From the IMG/VR virus record IMGVR_UViG_2740892270_000008: a stretch of DNA of 26,692 bases. One strand, written 5' to 3'. Positions 1,717 through 23,808 of this stretch are shown in pieces. The translations under genes were made by a program, and so were the position numbers. Source of the stretch: a virus (taxonomy: Duplodnaviria > Heunggongvirae > Uroviricota > Caudoviricetes). Every line of letters starts with the position of its first letter. The first letter of the stretch is position 1. The notes under the pieces were generated by a model, which was not told the DNA's origin, did not search any database, and saw only the letters and a list, made by a program, of their open reading frames with translations.

Positions 1717-3804
1717 ATGTTTGCTTCAGTTAAAGAACTGGTTGGATTACCGGGGATGCCGGGAACGGAGCAAGGCGTTCGCTATTCAATCAGGAAGTAT
1801 GCAACCAGCGAAACCAGCAGACGCCGCAAGAAAGGCGCTAAAGGTTTTGAATACAGCATTGACTGTTTACCTGAAGTGACACAGCAGGCATTACGCGAAC
1901 GTTATGCCCTGCAACTGATGACGCAAAAAGCCGATGAATCACCGGCTCCGGTGGTGACAAAGGCCAGACGCTCGTCTGCCGTGGTTGATGCGGTGGAGGC
2001 ATATCGCGGATCACCACAACTGATGGTCGAACGCCTCAATGCCCTGACTGAAAACCAGCGCCAGGTGGCAGACGCACGCATTGCGATCGTCAGTGAGGTG
2101 CTGAAATTCACGCAACAACCCGGTTTCAGCTGCGCTAAAGCTATCCGGTTCCTCGTTAACAGCCTGGCACGATCACAACTGGACGAGCGCATTGTGGCAA
2201 TGGTTGAGACGGCGAACGCCAAAAAGGGAAACAGCCGCGCGTTGAGTGAAATCACGCTGAAACGCTGGATTGCGGCCTTTAACAAGGCACAGAACGCCGC
2301 TGAACGCCTGCTTTTACTGGCACCGGGTAAACGCCAGGAAATAAAAGCCGAAGATATTAACTGGCTGCCCGAATTTCTGGCGCAGTATCGCCAGTCAAAC
2401 GGCCGACCAATGACCGAGGCTTACGAGGATTTTGTTGCTGAATGGCAGCACCGGCACGCTGATGAGCCTTATATGCTCGATATCATGCCCTCTTATGACA
2501 CCATTCGCCGCGCAATGAAGAAACTGCCGGAAGTGGTGAAACAAAAAGGCCGGGTAACTGGCAGTGAATACCGTCAGCTTGAGGGATTCACGCGCCGCGA
2601 CTGGTCCAGAATGCCGGTGAATTATGTCTGGATTGGTGACGGTCACGGCATGAAGCTGAAATGCGCGCACCCGGTTCACGGGCGGCCATTCGCACCGGAA
2701 GTGACCTTTGTTATCGACGGTGGCACGCGCTTTGTGGTGGGCTGGAGCCTTGACCTGGCTGAAAATGTTTTCGCCGTAGCCGGTGCCATACAGCACGGTA
2801 TTCGCCATCATGGCAAACCGTTTCTGTATTACTCGGATAATGGCTCCGGGGAAACCGCCGACGTCCTGGATAAGGAGATTGTGGGGATACTGCCACGACT
2901 GGGGATTAATCACCCGACAGGGATTGCCGGTAATCCGCAGGGACGGGGCATTATCGAACGGCTTAACCGCACATTACCGATGCGCATAGCCCGTAAATAC
3001 CGCACCTATTTCGGGAAAGGAGCAGATCGCGAGACGTTACGTAAAACCAACCGCGATTTACGCTCGGCATTCAGTGCCCTGCAACAGGGCAAACGGCTGA
3101 ACGCCCGGCAGCAGTCAGCGATGCGTGATTTACCGTCCTGGTCTGAACTGATTGATGCCATTCGTGACGGTGTTGAGTGGTACAACAACCGGCCGCACGA
3201 TGAATTACCCATGAAGCCGAACGGTAAACATTACAGCCCGGCGGAGTTCAGAAAAAAACGCCTGGCGGAAGAGGACACGGAAATTGAATGGCTGTCCGAT
3301 GTTGAACTGCGGGATATGTTCCGGCCGATGGTGGAGCGCCCTGTAAGACGCTGTGAAATACGCTGGCTGAATAATATTTACTACGCGCCCGAGCTGCGTG
3401 ACGAGCATGGCCGTAAGGTACTTATCAGCTATGACATTCATGATGCCGAACGAATTACCGTGCGCCGCCCGGATGGCAGCGTGATTTGCGAGGCGGTATG
3501 GGACGGCAATAAACGCGAAGCCTTCCCTGTCAGCGCGGAATACTACAAACAGCAGCAGCGCCTTAAAGGCATGCGTAAACGCGCAGAGGAAAAAATCCGT
3601 GATGCCGAGGATGAGGTTGTCAACGTGCTGGAGCACAAGCCGCAGGAGCCCTGGCTGGAAAACATATACCGCCCTGTGGGTAATACGGTGACCGTTCAGC
3701 AACCGGTCGCTGACGATGAACCTGATGAAGAATACGAGCGTAATTTCCAGCGGGGATTGCAACTGCTCGAAGCGAAATTAAAAGAAAGTGATCCGCTGGC
3801 CTGA
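1717..3804 (+). CDS. Mu A-like DDE transposase
   Basis: 695 aa following ner; DDE core region VWIGDGHGMKLKCAHPVHGRPFAPEVTFVIDGGTRFVVGW and ...YYSDNGSGE...; size and position as MuA. Confidence 0.9.
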   Translation: MFASVKELVGLPGMPGTEQGVRYSIRKYATSETSRRRKKGAKGFEYSIDCLPEVTQQALRERYALQLMTQKADESPAPVVTKARRSSAVVDAVEAYRGSPQLMVERLNALTENQRQVADARIAIVSEVLKFTQQPGFSCAKAIRFLVNSLARSQLDERIVAMVETANAKKGNSRALSEITLKRWIAAFNKAQNAAERLLLLAPGKRQEIKAEDINWLPEFLAQYRQSNGRPMTEAYEDFVAEWQHRHADEPYMLDIMPSYDTIRRAMKKLPEVVKQKGRVTGSEYRQLEGFTRRDWSRMPVNYVWIGDGHGMKLKCAHPVHGRPFAPEVTFVIDGGTRFVVGWSLDLAENVFAVAGAIQHGIRHHGKPFLYYSDNGSGETADVLDKEIVGILPRLGINHPTGIAGNPQGRGIIERLNRTLPMRIARKYRTYFGKGADRETLRKTNRDLRSAFSALQQGKRLNARQQSAMRDLPSWSELIDAIRDGVEWYNNRPHDELPMKPNGKHYSPAEFRKKRLAEEDTEIEWLSDVELRDMFRPMVERPVRRCEIRWLNNIYYAPELRDEHGRKVLISYDIHDAERITVRRPDGSVICEAVWDGNKREAFPVSAEYYKQQQRLKGMRKRAEEKIRDAEDEVVNVLEHKPQEPWLENIYRPVGNTVTVQQPVADDEPDEEYERNFQRGLQLLEAKLKESDPLA

Positions 3805-3886
3805 AATAAAAAAATAACCCGAGGGGTGACTCAGGTTATTTGAGGTTTCAGTCTCGGAGAATGCTGTCTCAAGCGAGGTGAATAAT

Positions 3887-4646
3887 ATGACCGATATTAA
3901 CGATGTAATCAAGACCATTGATGAACTTATTGATGGCGGCGTACTGACGCAGTATGCCATCGCCAGAGAGGCGGGAATTTCCGACGGCACATTATCGGCT
4001 TTCCGTAAGGGAAAATATAAAGGCGATAACGCTGCTGTGGCTGCTTCCCTGCGCTCCTGGTATGAGAACTGGAATAAACAAAGCGCACTGCCGGAACCGC
4101 CGCAGTTTGTGGAAACTCAGACAGTCCAGGAGCTGCGCGCACTGTTTCAGGCGGTTCGCCTGATGGGCTGTATTAACGTTATTGTGGGCGTACCGGGTGT
4201 GGGTAAAACGGCCACTGCCCGTAATTACTGCCAGGAGCAACCAAACACCTGGATGATCACCCTGTCACCCGCGCACTCCAGCGTCACGGAGTGTCTGCTG
4301 GAGCTGGCCGATGCGCTGGGGATTGATTACACCCGCGCGAACAAAGGGGCATTATCCCGCGCCATCCGCCGTCGCCTGATGGGAACGCGTGGACTGGTGA
4401 TTGTGGATGAGGCGGATCATCTTGGTATTGACGGTCTGGAGCAACTCCGGGCAATTCAGGACGCCACGGGGATCGGGATGGTGCTTATTGGTAACCCGCG
4501 CGGATTGTTTAAAGGTGGACGCCGCGCCTTTGATGATTTATCGCGCCTGTTCAGCCGTCTTGCCCGTACAAAACAACTTCGCAAGGCCAAAAAGGCGGAT
4601 GTGCTGGCCATTGCCATGGCGTGGGGGATCAGTGGTGAGGCCGCGG
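3887..4646 (+). CDS. Mu B-like transposition ATPase (C-terminus inside N-masked block)
   Basis: Walker A GVPGVGKT and Walker B LVIVDEADHL; likely ATG 3887 with SD GAGGTG 6 nt upstream (track start 3878 is GTG); ORF runs into masked block 4647-4901 so the true stop is unknown. Confidence 0.85.
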
Positions 4647-4958
4647 NNNNNNNNNNNNNNNNNNNNNNNNNNNNNNNNNNNNNNNNNNNNNNNNNNNNNN
4701 NNNNNNNNNNNNNNNNNNNNNNNNNNNNNNNNNNNNNNNNNNNNNNNNNNNNNNNNNNNNNNNNNNNNNNNNNNNNNNNNNNNNNNNNNNNNNNNNNNNN
4801 NNNNNNNNNNNNNNNNNNNNNNNNNNNNNNNNNNNNNNNNNNNNNNNNNNNNNNNNNNNNNNNNNNNNNNNNNNNNNNNNNNNNNNNNNNNNNNNNNNNN
4901 NTACAGCGGAATATGCCGTTCTGTTGGTGCGAAACAAGTCAGCTAAATGAGGTGTTAT

Positions 4959-5213
4959 ATGAATATGCAATCCTGCGGTAACAAAATGAATTTATTCGAC
5001 TCCCTGAACAGCGCGCGCCGTCTGACCGAACTTGCCGGTGCGGTACTGGAACGCAGTAAGCGCTATCCGCAACGTTTTGCACTGAAAACCACGCCGCCGG
5101 TAGGCAACGTGCAGGGAACCGGTGAAATTGAAATCACCATACAGACCAACGGCCTGCGCCGCCGTGTGAAGGCCACCCGCATCAGCGGCTGCACGGTTTA
5201 CTGGGAGGTGTGA
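4959..5213 (+). CDS. Hypothetical early-region protein
   Basis: ORF in track (4947..5213); ATG 4959 preferred because GAGG sits 7 nt upstream; no recognisable motif. Confidence 0.4.
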   Translation: MNMQSCGNKMNLFDSLNSARRLTELAGAVLERSKRYPQRFALKTTPPVGNVQGTGEIEITIQTNGLRRRVKATRISGCTVYWEV

Positions 5214-5214
5214 G

Positions 5215-5496
5215 GTGAAAAAAAATCTCATTGCATGGGCGTGGTCGAGTGGTCTTATTGAGTTTGGTTACGTCCTGCCGGAAGGTGCATTGCCGATAGT
5301 TGCCGGAAAGCCTGCCACGGTACGGCATGTGATTGAGGTTATGGCGCGTCATGGACGTGATGAACAGGAGCAGTTACTGGTTCCGGGGATACCGGAAGCG
5401 GTGACGGAGGAAGAAGCCTTTAATGCCATGATTCGGTTCTGCCGTGAGGTTAGACGCCGGGTCAGTTATCCAAACAGAACGAGGACCAGAGGATGA
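5215..5496 (+). CDS. Hypothetical early-region protein
   Basis: 93-aa ORF with GTG start overlapping previous stop (TGAGGTG), GGAGG 7 nt upstream; stop overlaps next start (ATGA). Confidence 0.45.
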   Translation: MKKNLIAWAWSSGLIEFGYVLPEGALPIVAGKPATVRHVIEVMARHGRDEQEQLLVPGIPEAVTEEEAFNAMIRFCREVRRRVSYPNRTRTRG

Positions 5497-5765
5497 GTAA
5501 AGTCGTACGCATTATTTTCGAATACAAGGAAGATGTTATCTGCAAAAACTCTGATGGCAGCACGCACAGAGGGGTAAGTCTGGATATACGTTCAACCGGA
5601 ATAAAGAAGAAAGATAATGGACCCGCCATGATTTTTGGGGTGGTTATGCTGGCAGAAAGCAGAAACTTCGCAGAGTTTGTGGCAATGAAAGCCAGTGCAT
5701 TCATGAAAGACAGAGGCATGGCTTCCGGGGTTATTAACGGTAATGAATTTAATCAACAGGGGTAA
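5493..5765 (+). CDS. Hypothetical small protein, paralog 1 of a tandem pair
   Basis: 90 aa, N-terminus MSKVVRIIFEY; shares N-terminal motif with next ORF. Confidence 0.5.
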   Translation: MSKVVRIIFEYKEDVICKNSDGSTHRGVSLDIRSTGIKKKDNGPAMIFGVVMLAESRNFAEFVAMKASAFMKDRGMASGVINGNEFNQQG

Positions 5766-5769
5766 TTCC

Positions 5770-6063
5770 ATGAGCAAAGTACGCGTTATTTTTGAATTTA
5801 ATCATGTTTCGCATGACGAAAAGTTGGCAGGCAATGACTGTGTTGAAGTGCATGAAAAGATTGGAGTGGATGTGAAAACAGAACGTGATACGGATAACAG
5901 GCCGACGTCACTCTGTGACGTTTATGCAAGTATTCTCCAGTATCACAGTCCTGCAATTATTCAGTTTCTCTCAGCGGAATTTCAGGCATCTGCACAGTCT
6001 TTTGGAGCGGATGCCATCATTAAACGCCACCGCGTGCATAAAGCATCAGGCACACTGCAATAA
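5770..6063 (+). CDS. Hypothetical small protein, paralog 2 of a tandem pair
   Basis: ATG 5770 gives MSKVRVIFEFNH..., the same MSKV(V/R)(R/V)I(I/F)FE(Y/F) N-terminus as the preceding ORF; track start 5743 is upstream in-frame. Confidence 0.5.
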   Translation: MSKVRVIFEFNHVSHDEKLAGNDCVEVHEKIGVDVKTERDTDNRPTSLCDVYASILQYHSPAIIQFLSAEFQASAQSFGADAIIKRHRVHKASGTLQ

Positions 6064-6074
6064 GGAAAAACAAA

Positions 6075-6605
6075 ATGGCTAAACGCGTTACAAAATTAAA
6101 GGCCGCAGCCGAGGCGGCACCGCAGACCCGGGAAGAAGTCAGCCGTGATATCCGCACCCTGGGAGATATTCAGCGAGAGGCGCTGCGCCTGGAAACGGCG
6201 ATGAATGACGAAGTGGCAGAAATCACCGCCCGTTATACGCCGCAGATTGAAAATCTTAAAAAGCAAATCAAAGTGCTTTTTAAAGGGATTCAGGACTGGT
6301 GCAAAACCAACCGTGATGAGCTGACGAACGGCGGCAAAACCAAAACAGCCAATCTGACCACCGGAACGGTGTCATGGCGGCTGGGAACGCCATCATGCAG
6401 CGTCAGCCGTGATGTGGAAGGTGTGATTGAAATGCTGCGCCGTATGGGGCTTGAGCGTTTCATCCGCACGAAAGAGGAAGTGAACAAGGAAGCCGTCCTG
6501 GCGGAGCCGGATGCTGTGAAAGGCATTGCCGGTATCAAGGTGAATAAAGGCGCTGAAAGTTTTTATGTCGAGCCTTTTGAACAGGACGCCGGACTGAATA
6601 AATAA
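6075..6605 (+). CDS. gam: Gam-like host-nuclease inhibitor (Ku-like dsDNA end-binding protein)
   Basis: 176 aa; MAKR..KLKAAAEAAPQTREEV..DIRTLGDIQREALRLETAMNDEVAEIT...NRDELTNGGKTKTANLTTGTVSWR...ERFIRTKEEVNKEAVL...PFEQDAG matches Mu Gam nearly motif for motif as recalled. Confidence 0.9.
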   Translation: MAKRVTKLKAAAEAAPQTREEVSRDIRTLGDIQREALRLETAMNDEVAEITARYTPQIENLKKQIKVLFKGIQDWCKTNRDELTNGGKTKTANLTTGTVSWRLGTPSCSVSRDVEGVIEMLRRMGLERFIRTKEEVNKEAVLAEPDAVKGIAGIKVNKGAESFYVEPFEQDAGLNK

Positions 6606-6750
6606 CACCGCATTAATCAATTAAATATCACTTCATTTTAATTATGGCGCTCGCGTCAGGGGACTGCTTGCGCCTGAAAACAGAAAATAAGGGTTAAGAA
6701 ATATGAAATACGTTTATATCGTCATTAATAATGTGGTGGGGAAATAAATC

Positions 6751-7802: not shown

Positions 7803-8354
7803 ATGATGAAATTACAACCCATGGGACTAAAAGGTCGCGCCCCCGCTCATGTCCGTCCGTGGACACCTGAAGAAGATGCGCTGCTGATTGCGCTTTATTC
7901 ATCCACCCCGGTTAAGGATATTGCTGCCAGAATAAAAAGAACTGTCTGGGCTGTATATAACCGGACTGGTGTATTGCGCAGTTCATACCCGGAGTTACTG
8001 AAATATAAACACCCAAGATTTACACCTGATGAAGATAAGTTTATTCGAAAAAATGCCAGAACAATGACCTGCCAGCAAATGGGAGAATATCTCGGACGTA
8101 ATAAAGATTCTGTCAGATGTCGGGCAGGAATGATTGGTGCTGGATTAACAAAGTGCGGAGAGTTACGCCCCGGCACGCGCATATCTGATGATGATGTACG
8201 TCTTATACGTGAGCTGCGTGATTCCGATTACCCACGCCGTCTGTCATTCCGGGAAATTGGCGAAAAGTTTGGAATATCTGAACATTCTGCTCACGCAGTT
8301 TATTACCGTCGCCGGACTGCCGAGGACGCTGTATTACGGGAGTTAACGCCATGA
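7803..8354 (+). CDS. Putative DNA-binding protein with three tandem HTH (Myb/SANT-like) repeats
   Basis: 183 aa; three ~45-aa repeats each beginning (T/S)P-(E/D)-ED: WTPEEDALLIALY...IAARIKRTVWAVYNR / FTPDEDKFIRKN...MGEYLGRNKDSVRCR / ISDDDVRLIREL...IGEKFGISEHSAHAVYYRR; SD AGGGGG 6 nt upstream. Confidence 0.55.
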   Translation: MMKLQPMGLKGRAPAHVRPWTPEEDALLIALYSSTPVKDIAARIKRTVWAVYNRTGVLRSSYPELLKYKHPRFTPDEDKFIRKNARTMTCQQMGEYLGRNKDSVRCRAGMIGAGLTKCGELRPGTRISDDDVRLIRELRDSDYPRRLSFREIGEKFGISEHSAHAVYYRRRTAEDAVLRELTP

Positions 8355-9701: not shown

Positions 9702-9972
9702 NNNNNNNNNNNNNNNNNNNNNNNNNNNNNNNNNNNNNNNNNNNNNNNNNNNNNNNNNNNNNNNNNNNNNNNNNNNNNNNNNNNNNNNNNNNNNNNNNNN
9801 NNNNNNNNNNNNNNNNNNNNNNNNNNNNNNNNNNNNNNNNNNNNNNNNNNNNNNNNNNNNNNNNNNNNNNNNNNNNNNNNNNNNNNNNNNNNNNNNNNNN
9901 NNNNNNNNNNNNNNNNNNNNNNNNNNNNNNNNNNNNNNNNNNNNNNNNNNNNNATGATGACCGGAGGCGGGT

Positions 9973-10224: not shown

Positions 10225-10405
10225 NNNNNNNNNNNNNNNNNNNNNNNNNNNNNNNNNNNNNNNNNNNNNNNNNNNNNNNNNNNNNNNNNNNNNNNNNNNN
10301 NNNNNNNNNNNNNNNNNNNNNNNNNNNNNNNNNNNNNNNNNNNNNNNNNNNNNNNNNNNNNNNNNNNNNNNNNNNNNNNNNNNNNNNNNNNNNNNNNNNN
10401 NNNNN

Positions 10406-16306: not shown

Positions 16307-16556
16307 NNNNNNNNNNNNNNNNNNNNNNNNNNNNNNNNNNNNNNNNNNNNNNNNNNNNNNNNNNNNNNNNNNNNNNNNNNNNNNNNNNNNNNNNNNNNNN
16401 NNNNNNNNNNNNNNNNNNNNNNNNNNNNNNNNNNNNNNNNNNNNNNNNNNNNNNNNNNNNNNNNNNNNNNNNNNNNNNNNNNNNNNNNNNNNNNNNNNNN
16501 NNNNNNNNNNNNNNNNNNNNNNNNNNNNNNNNNNNNNNNNNNNNNNNNNNNNNNNN

Positions 16557-17910: not shown

Positions 17911-18381
17911 ATGTCATCCATTGATGCAGCTGTCGTTGTTGACGTTACGCGTCTCCAGCGAGTGTTTGCCCGGCTTCAGTTTGTGGGCGGCGGAAAAGAC
18001 CTGGCCCGCNNNNNNNNNNNNNNNNNNNNNNNNNNNNNNNNNNNNNNNNNNNNNNNNNNNNNNNNNNNNNNNNNNNNNNNNNNNNNNNNNNNNNNNNNNN
18101 NNNNNNNNNNNNNNNNNNNNNNNNNNNNNNNNNNNNNNNNNNNNNNNNNNNNNNNNNNNNNNNNNNNNNNNNNNNNNNNNNNNNNNNNNNNNNNNNNNNN
18201 NNNNNNNNNNNNNNNNNNNNNNNNNNNNNNNNNNNNNNNNNNNNNNNNNNNNNNNNNNNGTATGCCACCGGGACCGGCGGCCATTGGCGCACGTCCGTAT
18301 ATGGGCTTTGATCAGGTGGCAGAACAGGAGATCATGGACGAAATCAGAAAACGCTTTAAAAAGGCCACAGAAACGCCGTAA
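17911..18381 (+). CDS. Virion morphogenesis protein G-like (Mu gp31-like); middle masked
   Basis: ORF stays in frame across the 249-nt mask (83 codons), giving 156 aa, which matches the size of Mu G as recalled; SD GGAGG upstream. Confidence 0.6.
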   Translation: MSSIDAAVVVDVTRLQRVFARLQFVGGGKDLARXXXXXXXXXXXXXXXXXXXXXXXXXXXXXXXXXXXXXXXXXXXXXXXXXXXXXXXXXXXXXXXXXXXXXXXXXXXXXXXXXXXXMPPGPAAIGARPYMGFDQVAEQEIMDEIRKRFKKATETP

Positions 18382-22300: not shown

Positions 22301-23808
22301 TGATTAACTTTGATTATATCGGCGATAACAATCGCATTCCGCTGGTACAGATTGAAATCAATAATTCAATGGCCGTGACCGGCACTCCACCACAGCGTCA
22401 GGCGGTACTGTTGTTTGGTCAGGCTGCAATGAAAGACACTACCATTCAGGGGCGCGGTCAGCTTGATGTACCAGTACGTATTACCCGAGCTTCACAAGCA
22501 AGAGAACTCTGGGGGCGAGGTTCCATGATTGCACTGATGGTAGAGGAATTTATCGCCATTAACCCTGACACAGAGTTATATGCCATTGCACAGGGGGCTG
22601 GAACAGGTCAGTCCAGGGCATGCGTGATGAATATCATTGGAACAGCATTGGCAGACGGGGTGTTAAGTGTTTACATCGGCGGTCGCCGTTACCTCCTGCC
22701 CGTCAGTAAGGGGAAAAAAGGTAAAGAGCTTGTGGAAGAGCTGGCTAAGGTCATTAACGCTGACACTGATGCGCCATTCACTGCTATCGCAGCTGAAGTC
22801 AGTGGTGATAATGCTGAAGGACTTAAAGGCAGCATGGGGGTTAACGCCCGCTTTATCGGTGAATGCTCAGCTCATGATTTACGGGTGAACTATTATGACG
22901 GTGAAACTACACCGGCCGGTCTTACGCTGGAGCTCGTCGCGCCAACACAGAAGGCAACAAACCCCGATATCACCCGTAGCGTCTCAGGGATGGGGAATCG
23001 TCAGTACAACTACATCGTCATGCCCTATAAGGATGCGGCAAATCTCAAAATTCTGGCGGATGAACTGCTGAAACGCTGGGGACCGGTAAAAATGTCGGAC
23101 GGTATGGTCTGGATGGCGCATACCGGCACCTTCGGTACGGCAACCAGTTTTGGTGAATCCCGTAATGACTTCCTGTTTACCTGCACTTCTATTCCTAAAG
23201 CACCAGAGCCGGATTATGTCTGGGCTGCCTCCATTTGTGCGGTCTGTGCGCCCTCCCTGTCAACGGATCCGGCCCGACCATTACAGANNNNNNNNNNNNN
23301 NNNNNNNNNNNNNNNNNNNNNNNNNNNNNNNNNNNNNNNNNNNNNNNNNNNNNNNNNNNNNNNNNNNNNNNNNNNNNNNNNNNNNNNNNNNNNNNNNNNN
23401 NNNNNNNNNNNNNNNNNNNNNNNNNNNNNNNNNNNNNNNNNNNNNNNNNNNNNNNNNNNNNNNNNNNNNNNNNNNNNNNNNNNNNNNNNNNNNNNNNNNN
23501 NNNNNNNNNNNNNNNNNNNNNNNNNNNNNNNNNNNNNGCAGCGTTTTCCGCGCCATAAACTGGCTGATGACGGGACGCCCGTTCGTGCCGGTCAGAATAT
23601 CGTGACACCGGAGATCATGAAACTTCAGTTAATTTCGCTGGGGGAAGAATGGGTGGATCTGGGACTGGTCGAAAATCTGGACACCTTTAAAAAGAATCTG
23701 CTCGTGGAGCGCAACACAAAAGACCGTAACCGTCTGGATGTGATGTGTACACCGGATCTGGTTAACCAGTTCCGCTTCATGGCCGCGCAGATCCGTTTCA
23801 TTTTGTGA
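22300..23808 (+). CDS. Contractile tail sheath protein L (middle masked)
   Basis: 502-aa frame continuous across mask 23288-23537; position before tail tube; size near Mu L. Confidence 0.8.
   Translation: MINFDYIGDNNRIPLVQIEINNSMAVTGTPPQRQAVLLFGQAAMKDTTIQGRGQLDVPVRITRASQARELWGRGSMIALMVEEFIAINPDTELYAIAQGAGTGQSRACVMNIIGTALADGVLSVYIGGRRYLLPVSKGKKGKELVEELAKVINADTDAPFTAIAAEVSGDNAEGLKGSMGVNARFIGECSAHDLRVNYYDGETTPAGLTLELVAPTQKATNPDITRSVSGMGNRQYNYIVMPYKDAANLKILADELLKRWGPVKMSDGMVWMAHTGTFGTATSFGESRNDFLFTCTSIPKAPEPDYVWAASICAVCAPSLSTDPARPLQXXXXXXXXXXXXXXXXXXXXXXXXXXXXXXXXXXXXXXXXXXXXXXXXXXXXXXXXXXXXXXXXXXXXXXXXXXXXXXXXXXXXQRFPRHKLADDGTPVRAGQNIVTPEIMKLQLISLGEEWVDLGLVENLDTFKKNLLVERNTKDRNRLDVMCTPDLVNQFRFMAAQIRFIL

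Follow-up and report, generated by a model that had tools for sequence, protein, structure and literature searches.

Two tandem early genes of a Mu-like Escherichia coli prophage as probable divergent members of the Mu gp7 (gnarl2) family

Between kil and gam, the early operon of a Mu-like Escherichia coli prophage carries two small adjacent genes, here called ORF1 and ORF2, whose products begin with nearly the same residues and then diverge. Are they duplicated copies of one ancestor, and what might they do for the phage? A preliminary description of the locus took them for a duplication followed by diversification, a pattern that it considered common among host-interaction and anti-defence genes under selection.

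We conclude from profile comparisons that ORF1 and ORF2 are divergent, duplicated members of a recently described family, that of Mu gp7, and do not represent a new kind of system. The finding is real but modest, and we infer the function. Taken as a whole, our best explanation, membership of this family together with a host-surface role like that reported for Mu gp7 (‘gnarl2’), has a probability of roughly 0.5.

Layout of the early region

The window (the whole stretch of DNA analysed, 26,692 nucleotides of IMG/VR record IMGVR_UViG_2740892270_000008) is a Mu-like transposable prophage of E. coli that resembles prophage Sp18. Its gene order is A, B, kil, a gene of phrog_1518, ORF1, ORF2 and gam, followed by homologues resembling Mu gp11 and gp12. 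The features that concern us are these:

1717–3804, plus strand: MuA-like transposase
3878–4981, plus strand: MuB-like ATPase, partly masked by Ns
4959–5213, plus strand: kil homologue (phrog_2679, E = 7.8e-46; Sakai ECs_4948); the frame opens at 4947 and the RefSeq-equivalent start is 4959
5215–5496, plus strand: 93-aa early gene (phrog_1518; Sakai ECs_4949)
5481–5496, plus strand: ORF1 translation signals as read from the sequence, GAGGA at 5481–5485 and AGAGG at 5488–5492
5493–5765, plus strand: ORF1, 90 aa, MSKVVRIIFEY...NQQG (phrog_4107); orthologue of O157 Sakai ECs_4950
5493–5525, plus strand: codons of the ORF1 N-terminal strand motif, MSKVVRIIFEY; residues 1–5 are invariant within the ORF1 family
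5758–5762, plus strand: ORF2 Shine–Dalgarno sequence AGGGG as read from the sequence, 7 nt before the ATG at 5770 and within the last ORF1 codons
5770–6063, plus strand: ORF2, 97 aa, MSKVRVIFEF...GTLQ (phrog_2230); orthologue of Sakai ECs_4951
5770–5799, plus strand: codons of the ORF2 N-terminal strand motif, MSKVRVIFEF
6075–6605, plus strand: gam (Pfam PF07352 Phage_Mu_Gam, E = 5.5e-42), the downstream anchor of the family slot

The two ORFs of about 90 aa are adjacent, just upstream of gam in the early region, where the preliminary description had placed them, and kil bounds the slot on the other side. Gam of the window is 57% identical to Mu Gam. The stretch from 4900 to 6700 is present at 88–100% identity in 232 of 5,426 complete E. 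coli genomes (~4%), including prophage Sp18 of O157:H7 Sakai, in which ECs_4950 and ECs_4951 are both annotated as ‘hypothetical protein’.

ORF1 and ORF2 are real, translated-looking genes under purifying selection. ORF1 opens within an ATGA (5493–5496) shared with the stop codon of the gene before it, an overlap that, together with the tight spacing of the genes, suggests translational coupling. The open frame of ORF2 (5743–6063) starts at an in-frame ATG at 5743; the start at 5770 is the supported one, because the AGGGG Shine–Dalgarno sequence lies upstream of it and RefSeq uses the equivalent start in Sakai. The longer frame overlaps the end of ORF1 and lacks the N-terminal signature of the family. 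Scans for promoters and terminators, Rfam comparisons and repeat searches at the locus found nothing beyond chance, and an RNA element, a promoter of the pair's own and a minus-strand ORF at 5462–5719 were rejected.

Several features around the pair are variable. The 93-aa gene has a GTG start, is annotated in Sakai (ECs_4949) as ‘host nuclease inhibitor protein’ and is unrelated to the ORF1/ORF2 family. Among Mu-like early regions it changes in presence and place: two loci lack it (L035 and L107), and it stands before the gp7-like gene in one (L109) and after it in another (L110). Its last ~15 codons are the leader sequence that elsewhere separates kil from the gp7-like gene. Farther downstream, a 183-aa protein (7803–8354) and Mu gp9 (95 aa) both match phrog_323 (‘transcriptional regulator, D5-like’). 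This gp9-like HTH module sits just upstream of gam in Mu and downstream of the gp12 homologue in the window, possibly in two copies. In Sakai Sp18, an additional gene of 543 nt, ECs_4953, separates gam from the gp11-like gene (L105 4705–5347); the window has only a 146-nt spacer at that place (6606–6750), which is another variable slot of the early region. Six runs of N, of ~180–255 nt each, interrupt the window (4647–4901, 9702–9953, 10225–10405, 16307–16556, 18010–18259 and 23288–23537). The first masks part of the MuB-like gene, and none touches ORF1 or ORF2.

A shared N-terminal strand

The near-identity of the two N termini, MSKVVRIIFEY and MSKVRVIFEF, reads exactly as had been reported. 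Aligned with a single one-residue gap, MSKVVRIIFEYK and MSKVRVIFEFNH are identical at 8 of the first 12 residues, and this is the unique best match among the 4,186 pairs that can be formed, with both strands of the window counted, from ORFs that start with ATG and encode 60 aa or more (runner-up pairs score 6). An ORF2 variant, P0047, starts with MSKIVRVIFEF and matches ORF1 without a gap. The same strand recurs across the family described below, whose hallmark is M[AS]K[VI]..[VI]I[FI]E[FYI].

At the DNA level, the 5′ ends of the two genes differ at several third codon positions and by a 3-nt indel, and the repeat search reported no DNA repeat there. The match has therefore been kept at the level of protein and does not reflect recent gene conversion. 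This bears on a reading in which ORF1 and ORF2 are unrelated genes, their common N terminus being either a convergent constraint on translation initiation or a short 5′ patch of gene conversion or recombination. Starts of MSK and MAK are common, and gam itself starts with MAK; the motif, however, is the first β-strand of a whole family and so more than a start context, and the third-position differences and the indel argue against a recent patch.

Family membership through profiles

Direct comparison of the two proteins gives weak similarity that is limited to the N-terminal half. Whole-protein BLASTP returns E = 6e-4 with 22% identity over 76 residues. In hhalign, alignment of the two family profiles covers only the N-terminal 24–45 columns (84–88% probability), and removal of the motif leaves a probability of 0.2% and no direct match, as would be expected if the genes were unrelated. 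BLASTP and tblastn with ORF1 and ORF2 found no match to Mu proteins, even at E 10; in the phage collection they matched only two Stx-phage records, which carry an inserted Mu-like element. Sequence searches of Pfam, NCBIfam and PDB with either protein gave no match. The ORF1 family and the ORF2 family are each narrow and restricted to E. coli.

To place them, we gathered ~100 Mu-like loci through Gam and mined these for genes between kil and gam. Mu and its close relatives have a single gene of ~87–89 aa in this region, with an N terminus of MAKVIIEIKN... (Mu gp7 type) or of MAKVIFEFN... or MAKVIFEFT... (types B and C). Mu gp7, also E6 or Mup07 (NP_050611.1; NC_000929 4784..5047), is the exact protein described as orf63, ‘gnarl2’, by Silas et al. 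(Nat Commun 2025, PMC12373910; preprint 10.1101/2023.04.06.535777). The ORF2 profile matches the type B/C proteins (hhalign 96.8%, E = 3e-10, 73 columns), these match a Kluyvera/Salmonella type (98.5%), and the Kluyvera/Salmonella type matches Mu gp7 (67.8%).

Against a profile of all family members except ORF1 and ORF2, both proteins show homology over most of their length: ORF1 at 96.2% (E = 2.3e-9, 77 columns) and ORF2 at 99.2% (E = 9e-20, 80 columns). Mu gp7 matches the rest of the family at 96.8% (E = 3e-10). As controls, 40 column-permuted profiles and a reversed one reached at most 2.6% probability and a score of at most 15.6, compared with real scores of 49–100; the best E value among the 40 permuted profiles was 0.018. 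With the N-terminal motif cut from both sides, the match to the family persists for ORF1 (87.8%, E = 3e-6, 61 columns) and for ORF2 (98.4%, E = 5e-15). Iterative search agrees: jackhmmer seeded with ORF2 recruited Mu gp7 (E = 7e-4) and then ORF1 (E = 2e-4), and Mu gp7 matches ORF2's PHROG over its full length (E = 0.009).

ORF1 and ORF2 very probably belong to the Mu E6/gp7 (gnarl2) family, and their paralogy is supported through that family and not by direct comparison. Each gene resembles the family over nearly its full length, far past the first ~10 residues, whereas the pair taken by itself would not. The family profile, the permuted controls and the motif-removed matches largely refute the reading as unrelated genes, which we regard as very improbable; the two proteins are also alike in length, predicted topology and slot. 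PHROGs 10252, 2230 and 4107, which lack a Pfam or NCBIfam model, would unite as one narrow superfamily tied to the Mu-like early-operon slot.

Within the family the two genes hold different places. The top subfamily partner of ORF2 is type B/C (score 56.1). That of ORF1 is ORF2 (score 35.9, compared with 15–18 for the others), through the N-terminal 24 columns only. ORF1 is the most divergent lineage and ORF2 a mainstream member.

An exhaustive HMMER search with the superfamily profile among 1.84 billion representative proteins returned only 24 matches at E ≤ 0.001 and brought in more diverse members (P0098–P0110). Two long proteins among the 24 were ignored: P0107 (1,268 aa), which looks spurious, and P0097, a repeat protein of 710 aa that is likely to be spurious as well, with 13 short matching stretches that all fall at profile positions 42–62. 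One type B member had a sub-threshold match to RraB (E = 0.009).

Predicted structure and protein properties

AlphaFold2 models predict one topology for both proteins, a long β-hairpin and one long helix. In ORF1, the strands span residues 6–18 and 24–35 and the helix 44–73 (pLDDT 79.5); in ORF2, the strands span 4–18 and 25–39 and the helix 48–77 (pLDDT 76.9). The two folds are predicted to be alike and not unrelated, an agreement that is not independent evidence because both models came from one mixed superfamily alignment. That alignment lacked the type B/C proteins, which a word-indexed search had failed to return, and the modelling covered ORF1 and ORF2. Compared with solved folds, the models gave no significant match.

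With a pI of 9.25, ORF1 is the only basic protein among the members examined; the rest, ORF2 included, are acidic (pI 4.6–6.5). Most members end in a C-terminal His (...KH, ...RH, ...CH or ...HH); ORF1 (...NQQG) and ORF2 (...GTLQ) do not. A reading as membrane proteins was ruled out, as there is no transmembrane segment and the maximum Kyte–Doolittle 19-residue mean is at most 1.17.

Copy number, alleles and rates

In Mu and 70+ other loci, family members lie after kil and before either gam or a DUF3164 gene that replaces it. Independent contigs with diverse members repeat this order of kil, one member, then gam or DUF3164. In the Mu group of the gathered loci there is always one copy, and types Mu7, B and C substitute for one another at one position. 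The Sp18-like group has ORF1 and ORF2 together in 37 loci. Copy number in related prophages, proposed earlier as a check, is thus one in other Mu-like phages and two in the Sp18-like lineage. The family is absent from 22 of 104 Mu-like loci, which retain A, B and Gam, and no member was detectable in distant Mu-like prophages (Gilliamella, Pseudomonas and others).

Across complete E. coli genomes, ORF1 occurs at 271 places and ORF2 at 274; the pair is thus seldom broken up, and single-copy variants are rare. One such variant is Sp18-like (L035 3355–4531; IMG/VR UViG_2654587996_000001): its sole member, an ORF2b allele, lies right after kil, with neither ORF1 nor the phrog_1518 gene, and its leader shares ~75% identity with the one that stands before ORF1 in other loci. 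Because a leader that elsewhere precedes ORF1 here precedes ORF2b, both genes map to one ancestral slot.

Alleles of the two genes assort independently. Most genomes have an ORF1 that is only 80–90% identical in DNA to that of the window beside an ORF2 that is 95–99% identical. ORF2 also has a second allele (types ORF2a and ORF2b), at 60–80% DNA identity and about 60% protein identity.

In at least one genome the paralogues have formed a chimaera. P0030 (E. coli, 67 aa) is a natural in-frame deletion fusion of ORF1 residues 1–49 to ORF2 residues 80–97 at a shared ‘FG’ (AMIFG|ADAII), equivalent to window positions 5493–5639 joined to 6007–6063. Recombination does happen within the pair, as the reading of the shared N terminus as a recombination patch would have it.

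Both genes evolve faster than their neighbours, yet selection on them is on average purifying, with no net positive selection. Mean dN is 0.065 for ORF1 and 0.119 for ORF2, whereas kil, gam and the other neighbouring genes have 0.009–0.038; the respective dN/dS values are 0.29 and 0.39, compared with 0.10–0.19 in the neighbours. Variation clusters in the distal hairpin (its tip), the loop and the C-terminal tail; the first strand is conserved, and so is the first half of the helix. The earlier suggestion of genes under selection therefore stands as regards diversification, with dN/dS above that of the neighbours, but the selection is purifying on average and not positive.

The split between ORF1 and ORF2 is ancient and fits an old duplication after which ORF1 diverged faster. 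Instead of duplication in situ, the second copy may also have come from recombination that captured another allele. Of the original proposal, paralogy (from the family profiles) and divergence (from the raised dN) hold.

A possible role at the host surface

The one tested member of the family gives the best guide to function. When gnarl2 was expressed in the wild E. coli strains ECOR1 and ECOR22, the O-antigen ladder shifted subtly downwards and T5 infection rose 10^5–10^6-fold, and transposon disruption of O-antigen genes gave the same phenotype (PMC12373910). The effect was host-specific, seen in ECOR1 and ECOR22 and not in ECOR3; it rests on heterologous expression and single LPS gels, affinity purification–mass spectrometry (AP-MS) did not clearly single out a target, and the authors regard the name as tentative (PMC12373910). 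The earlier guess of host interaction fits a family in which Mu E6/Mup07, an accessory gene, alters host O-antigen and phage sensitivity, and by analogy ORF1 and ORF2 may interact with the host too.

We propose that the tandem genes ORF1 and ORF2 diverged long ago within a family that occupies the kil–gam slot of the enterobacterial Mu-like early operon. Judging from this anatomy and from what is established for Mu, they would be made from the early transcript in lytic development. They probably lack enzymatic activity and would work by binding host proteins stoichiometrically. On the model of Mu gnarl2, they may perturb LPS/O-antigen assembly; this would hide or alter the cell surface and so guard it against reattachment or superinfection. 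The retention of both a basic ORF1 and an acidic ORF2 may reflect different host targets or target variants. Classical seroconversion is unlikely, because a lysogen keeps its early operon repressed. Identity of only ~15–23% to Mu gp7 and between ORF1 and ORF2, in a fast-evolving accessory family, means that function may not be conserved, and an O-antigen/LPS function for ORF1 and ORF2 themselves, assigned by analogy, is tentative and has rather less than even odds.

The same family could do another job. Its hairpin–helix might be a binding module that inhibits an intracellular host function (an immune system, a nuclease or another takeover target) and not LPS/O-antigen synthesis. Such a role would suit a hypervariable family in which a single slot can hold different alleles (Mu7, B, C and Kluyvera/Salmonella types; ORF2a and ORF2b), the raised dN and the reversed charge of ORF1, as well as the neighbouring kil, gam and phrog_1518 genes, which are host-takeover and nuclease-inhibitor genes; the missing AP-MS target of gnarl2 is also in keeping with it. 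However, experiments on the family have yielded a single phenotype, the O-antigen downshift with removal of a barrier, and the proteins have no similarity to known anti-defence proteins in Pfam, PHROGs, NCBIfam or PDB. We consider an intracellular target somewhat unlikely, although a serious contender.

Non-essential functions that stimulate replication were mapped to this early region in the older Mu literature. Because ORF1 and ORF2 follow directly after A, B and kil in the semi-essential early region and ORF1 is basic, they might assist Mu-type transposition or replication, or early gene regulation, as accessory factors that act on DNA or the transpososome and not on the envelope. Most family members are acidic, however, no DNA-binding fold or motif was detected, the 22 loci without the family keep A, B and Gam, and the family is too variable for a core replication role, which together make this reading quite improbable. 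Our literature search on older Mu early-region functions (arm, cim and the semi-essential region) found nothing usable on E6.

Returning to the host-surface role, a more elaborate version can be drawn: the kil–gam slot would hold a hypervariable, non-enzymatic hairpin–helix family with alleles matched to host LPS/O-antigen variants, and the basic and acidic ORF1–ORF2 pair of the Sp18-like lineage would be a heterodimer or a two-target module. We regard this as a distinctly unlikely elaboration. If true, the pair would widen the range of serotypes open to surface remodelling in lytic growth.

The discovery paper left the family of gnarl2 undefined, and the present comparisons point to alternative alleles that replace one another at the kil–gam slot. 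They provide natural sequence diversity for finding the target of gnarl2 and its specificity determinants. A Mu-like prophage common in Shiga-toxin-producing E. coli (Sp18 of O157 Sakai) carries two divergent copies, and two unannotated genes in prophages of pathogenic E. coli are flagged here as candidate surface or host modulators. In our literature search we found no source that links proteins of the ECs_4950 or ECs_4951 type to gnarl2, and no follow-up on gnarl2.

Comparison with known systems

Two other proteins that share the gnarl name, gnarl1 and gnarl3, offer a functional analogy only. Like gnarl2, they are small, non-enzymatic phage proteins that shift the O-antigen ladder down and remove a surface barrier, and gnarl3 binds GalU (PMC12373910). 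They are unrelated proteins of lytic phages (Klebsiella phage KpV79 and Escherichia phage Mangalitsa), and they were absent from the results of the homology searches run for the ORF1/ORF2 family. The name ‘gnarl’ denotes a shared phenotype and not a homologous family.

Mu gp7 itself is the closest system with a known phenotype. It is of similar size (87 aa, compared with 90 for ORF1 and 97 for ORF2), and all three proteins have the N-terminal M[AS]KV..I.E strand, occupy the early-operon slot between kil and gam, and have no Pfam or NCBIfam model. The differences are as plain. ORF1 and ORF2 are only about 15–23% identical to Mu gp7, with no direct BLAST match, and the three fall into separate PHROGs (10252 for Mu gp7, 2230 for ORF2 and 4107 for ORF1). 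The single copy of Mu contrasts with the tandem pair of this prophage, and ORF2 here abuts gam, whereas gp8 and gp9 separate gp7 from gam in Mu. Within the family, the O-antigen phenotype has been reported for Mu gp7 alone.

The closest relatives of ORF2 are the single-copy proteins of types B and C and the P0099-like proteins of other enterobacterial Mu-like prophages, with N termini of MAKVIFEFN... and MSNKAQVIFTFE.... In two loci (L106 and L108), the P0099-like gene is a single copy just upstream of gam and 50–180 nt downstream of kil. Unlike the pair in this prophage, the type B/C and P0099-like proteins are always single copy, and most of them are acidic and end in a C-terminal His.
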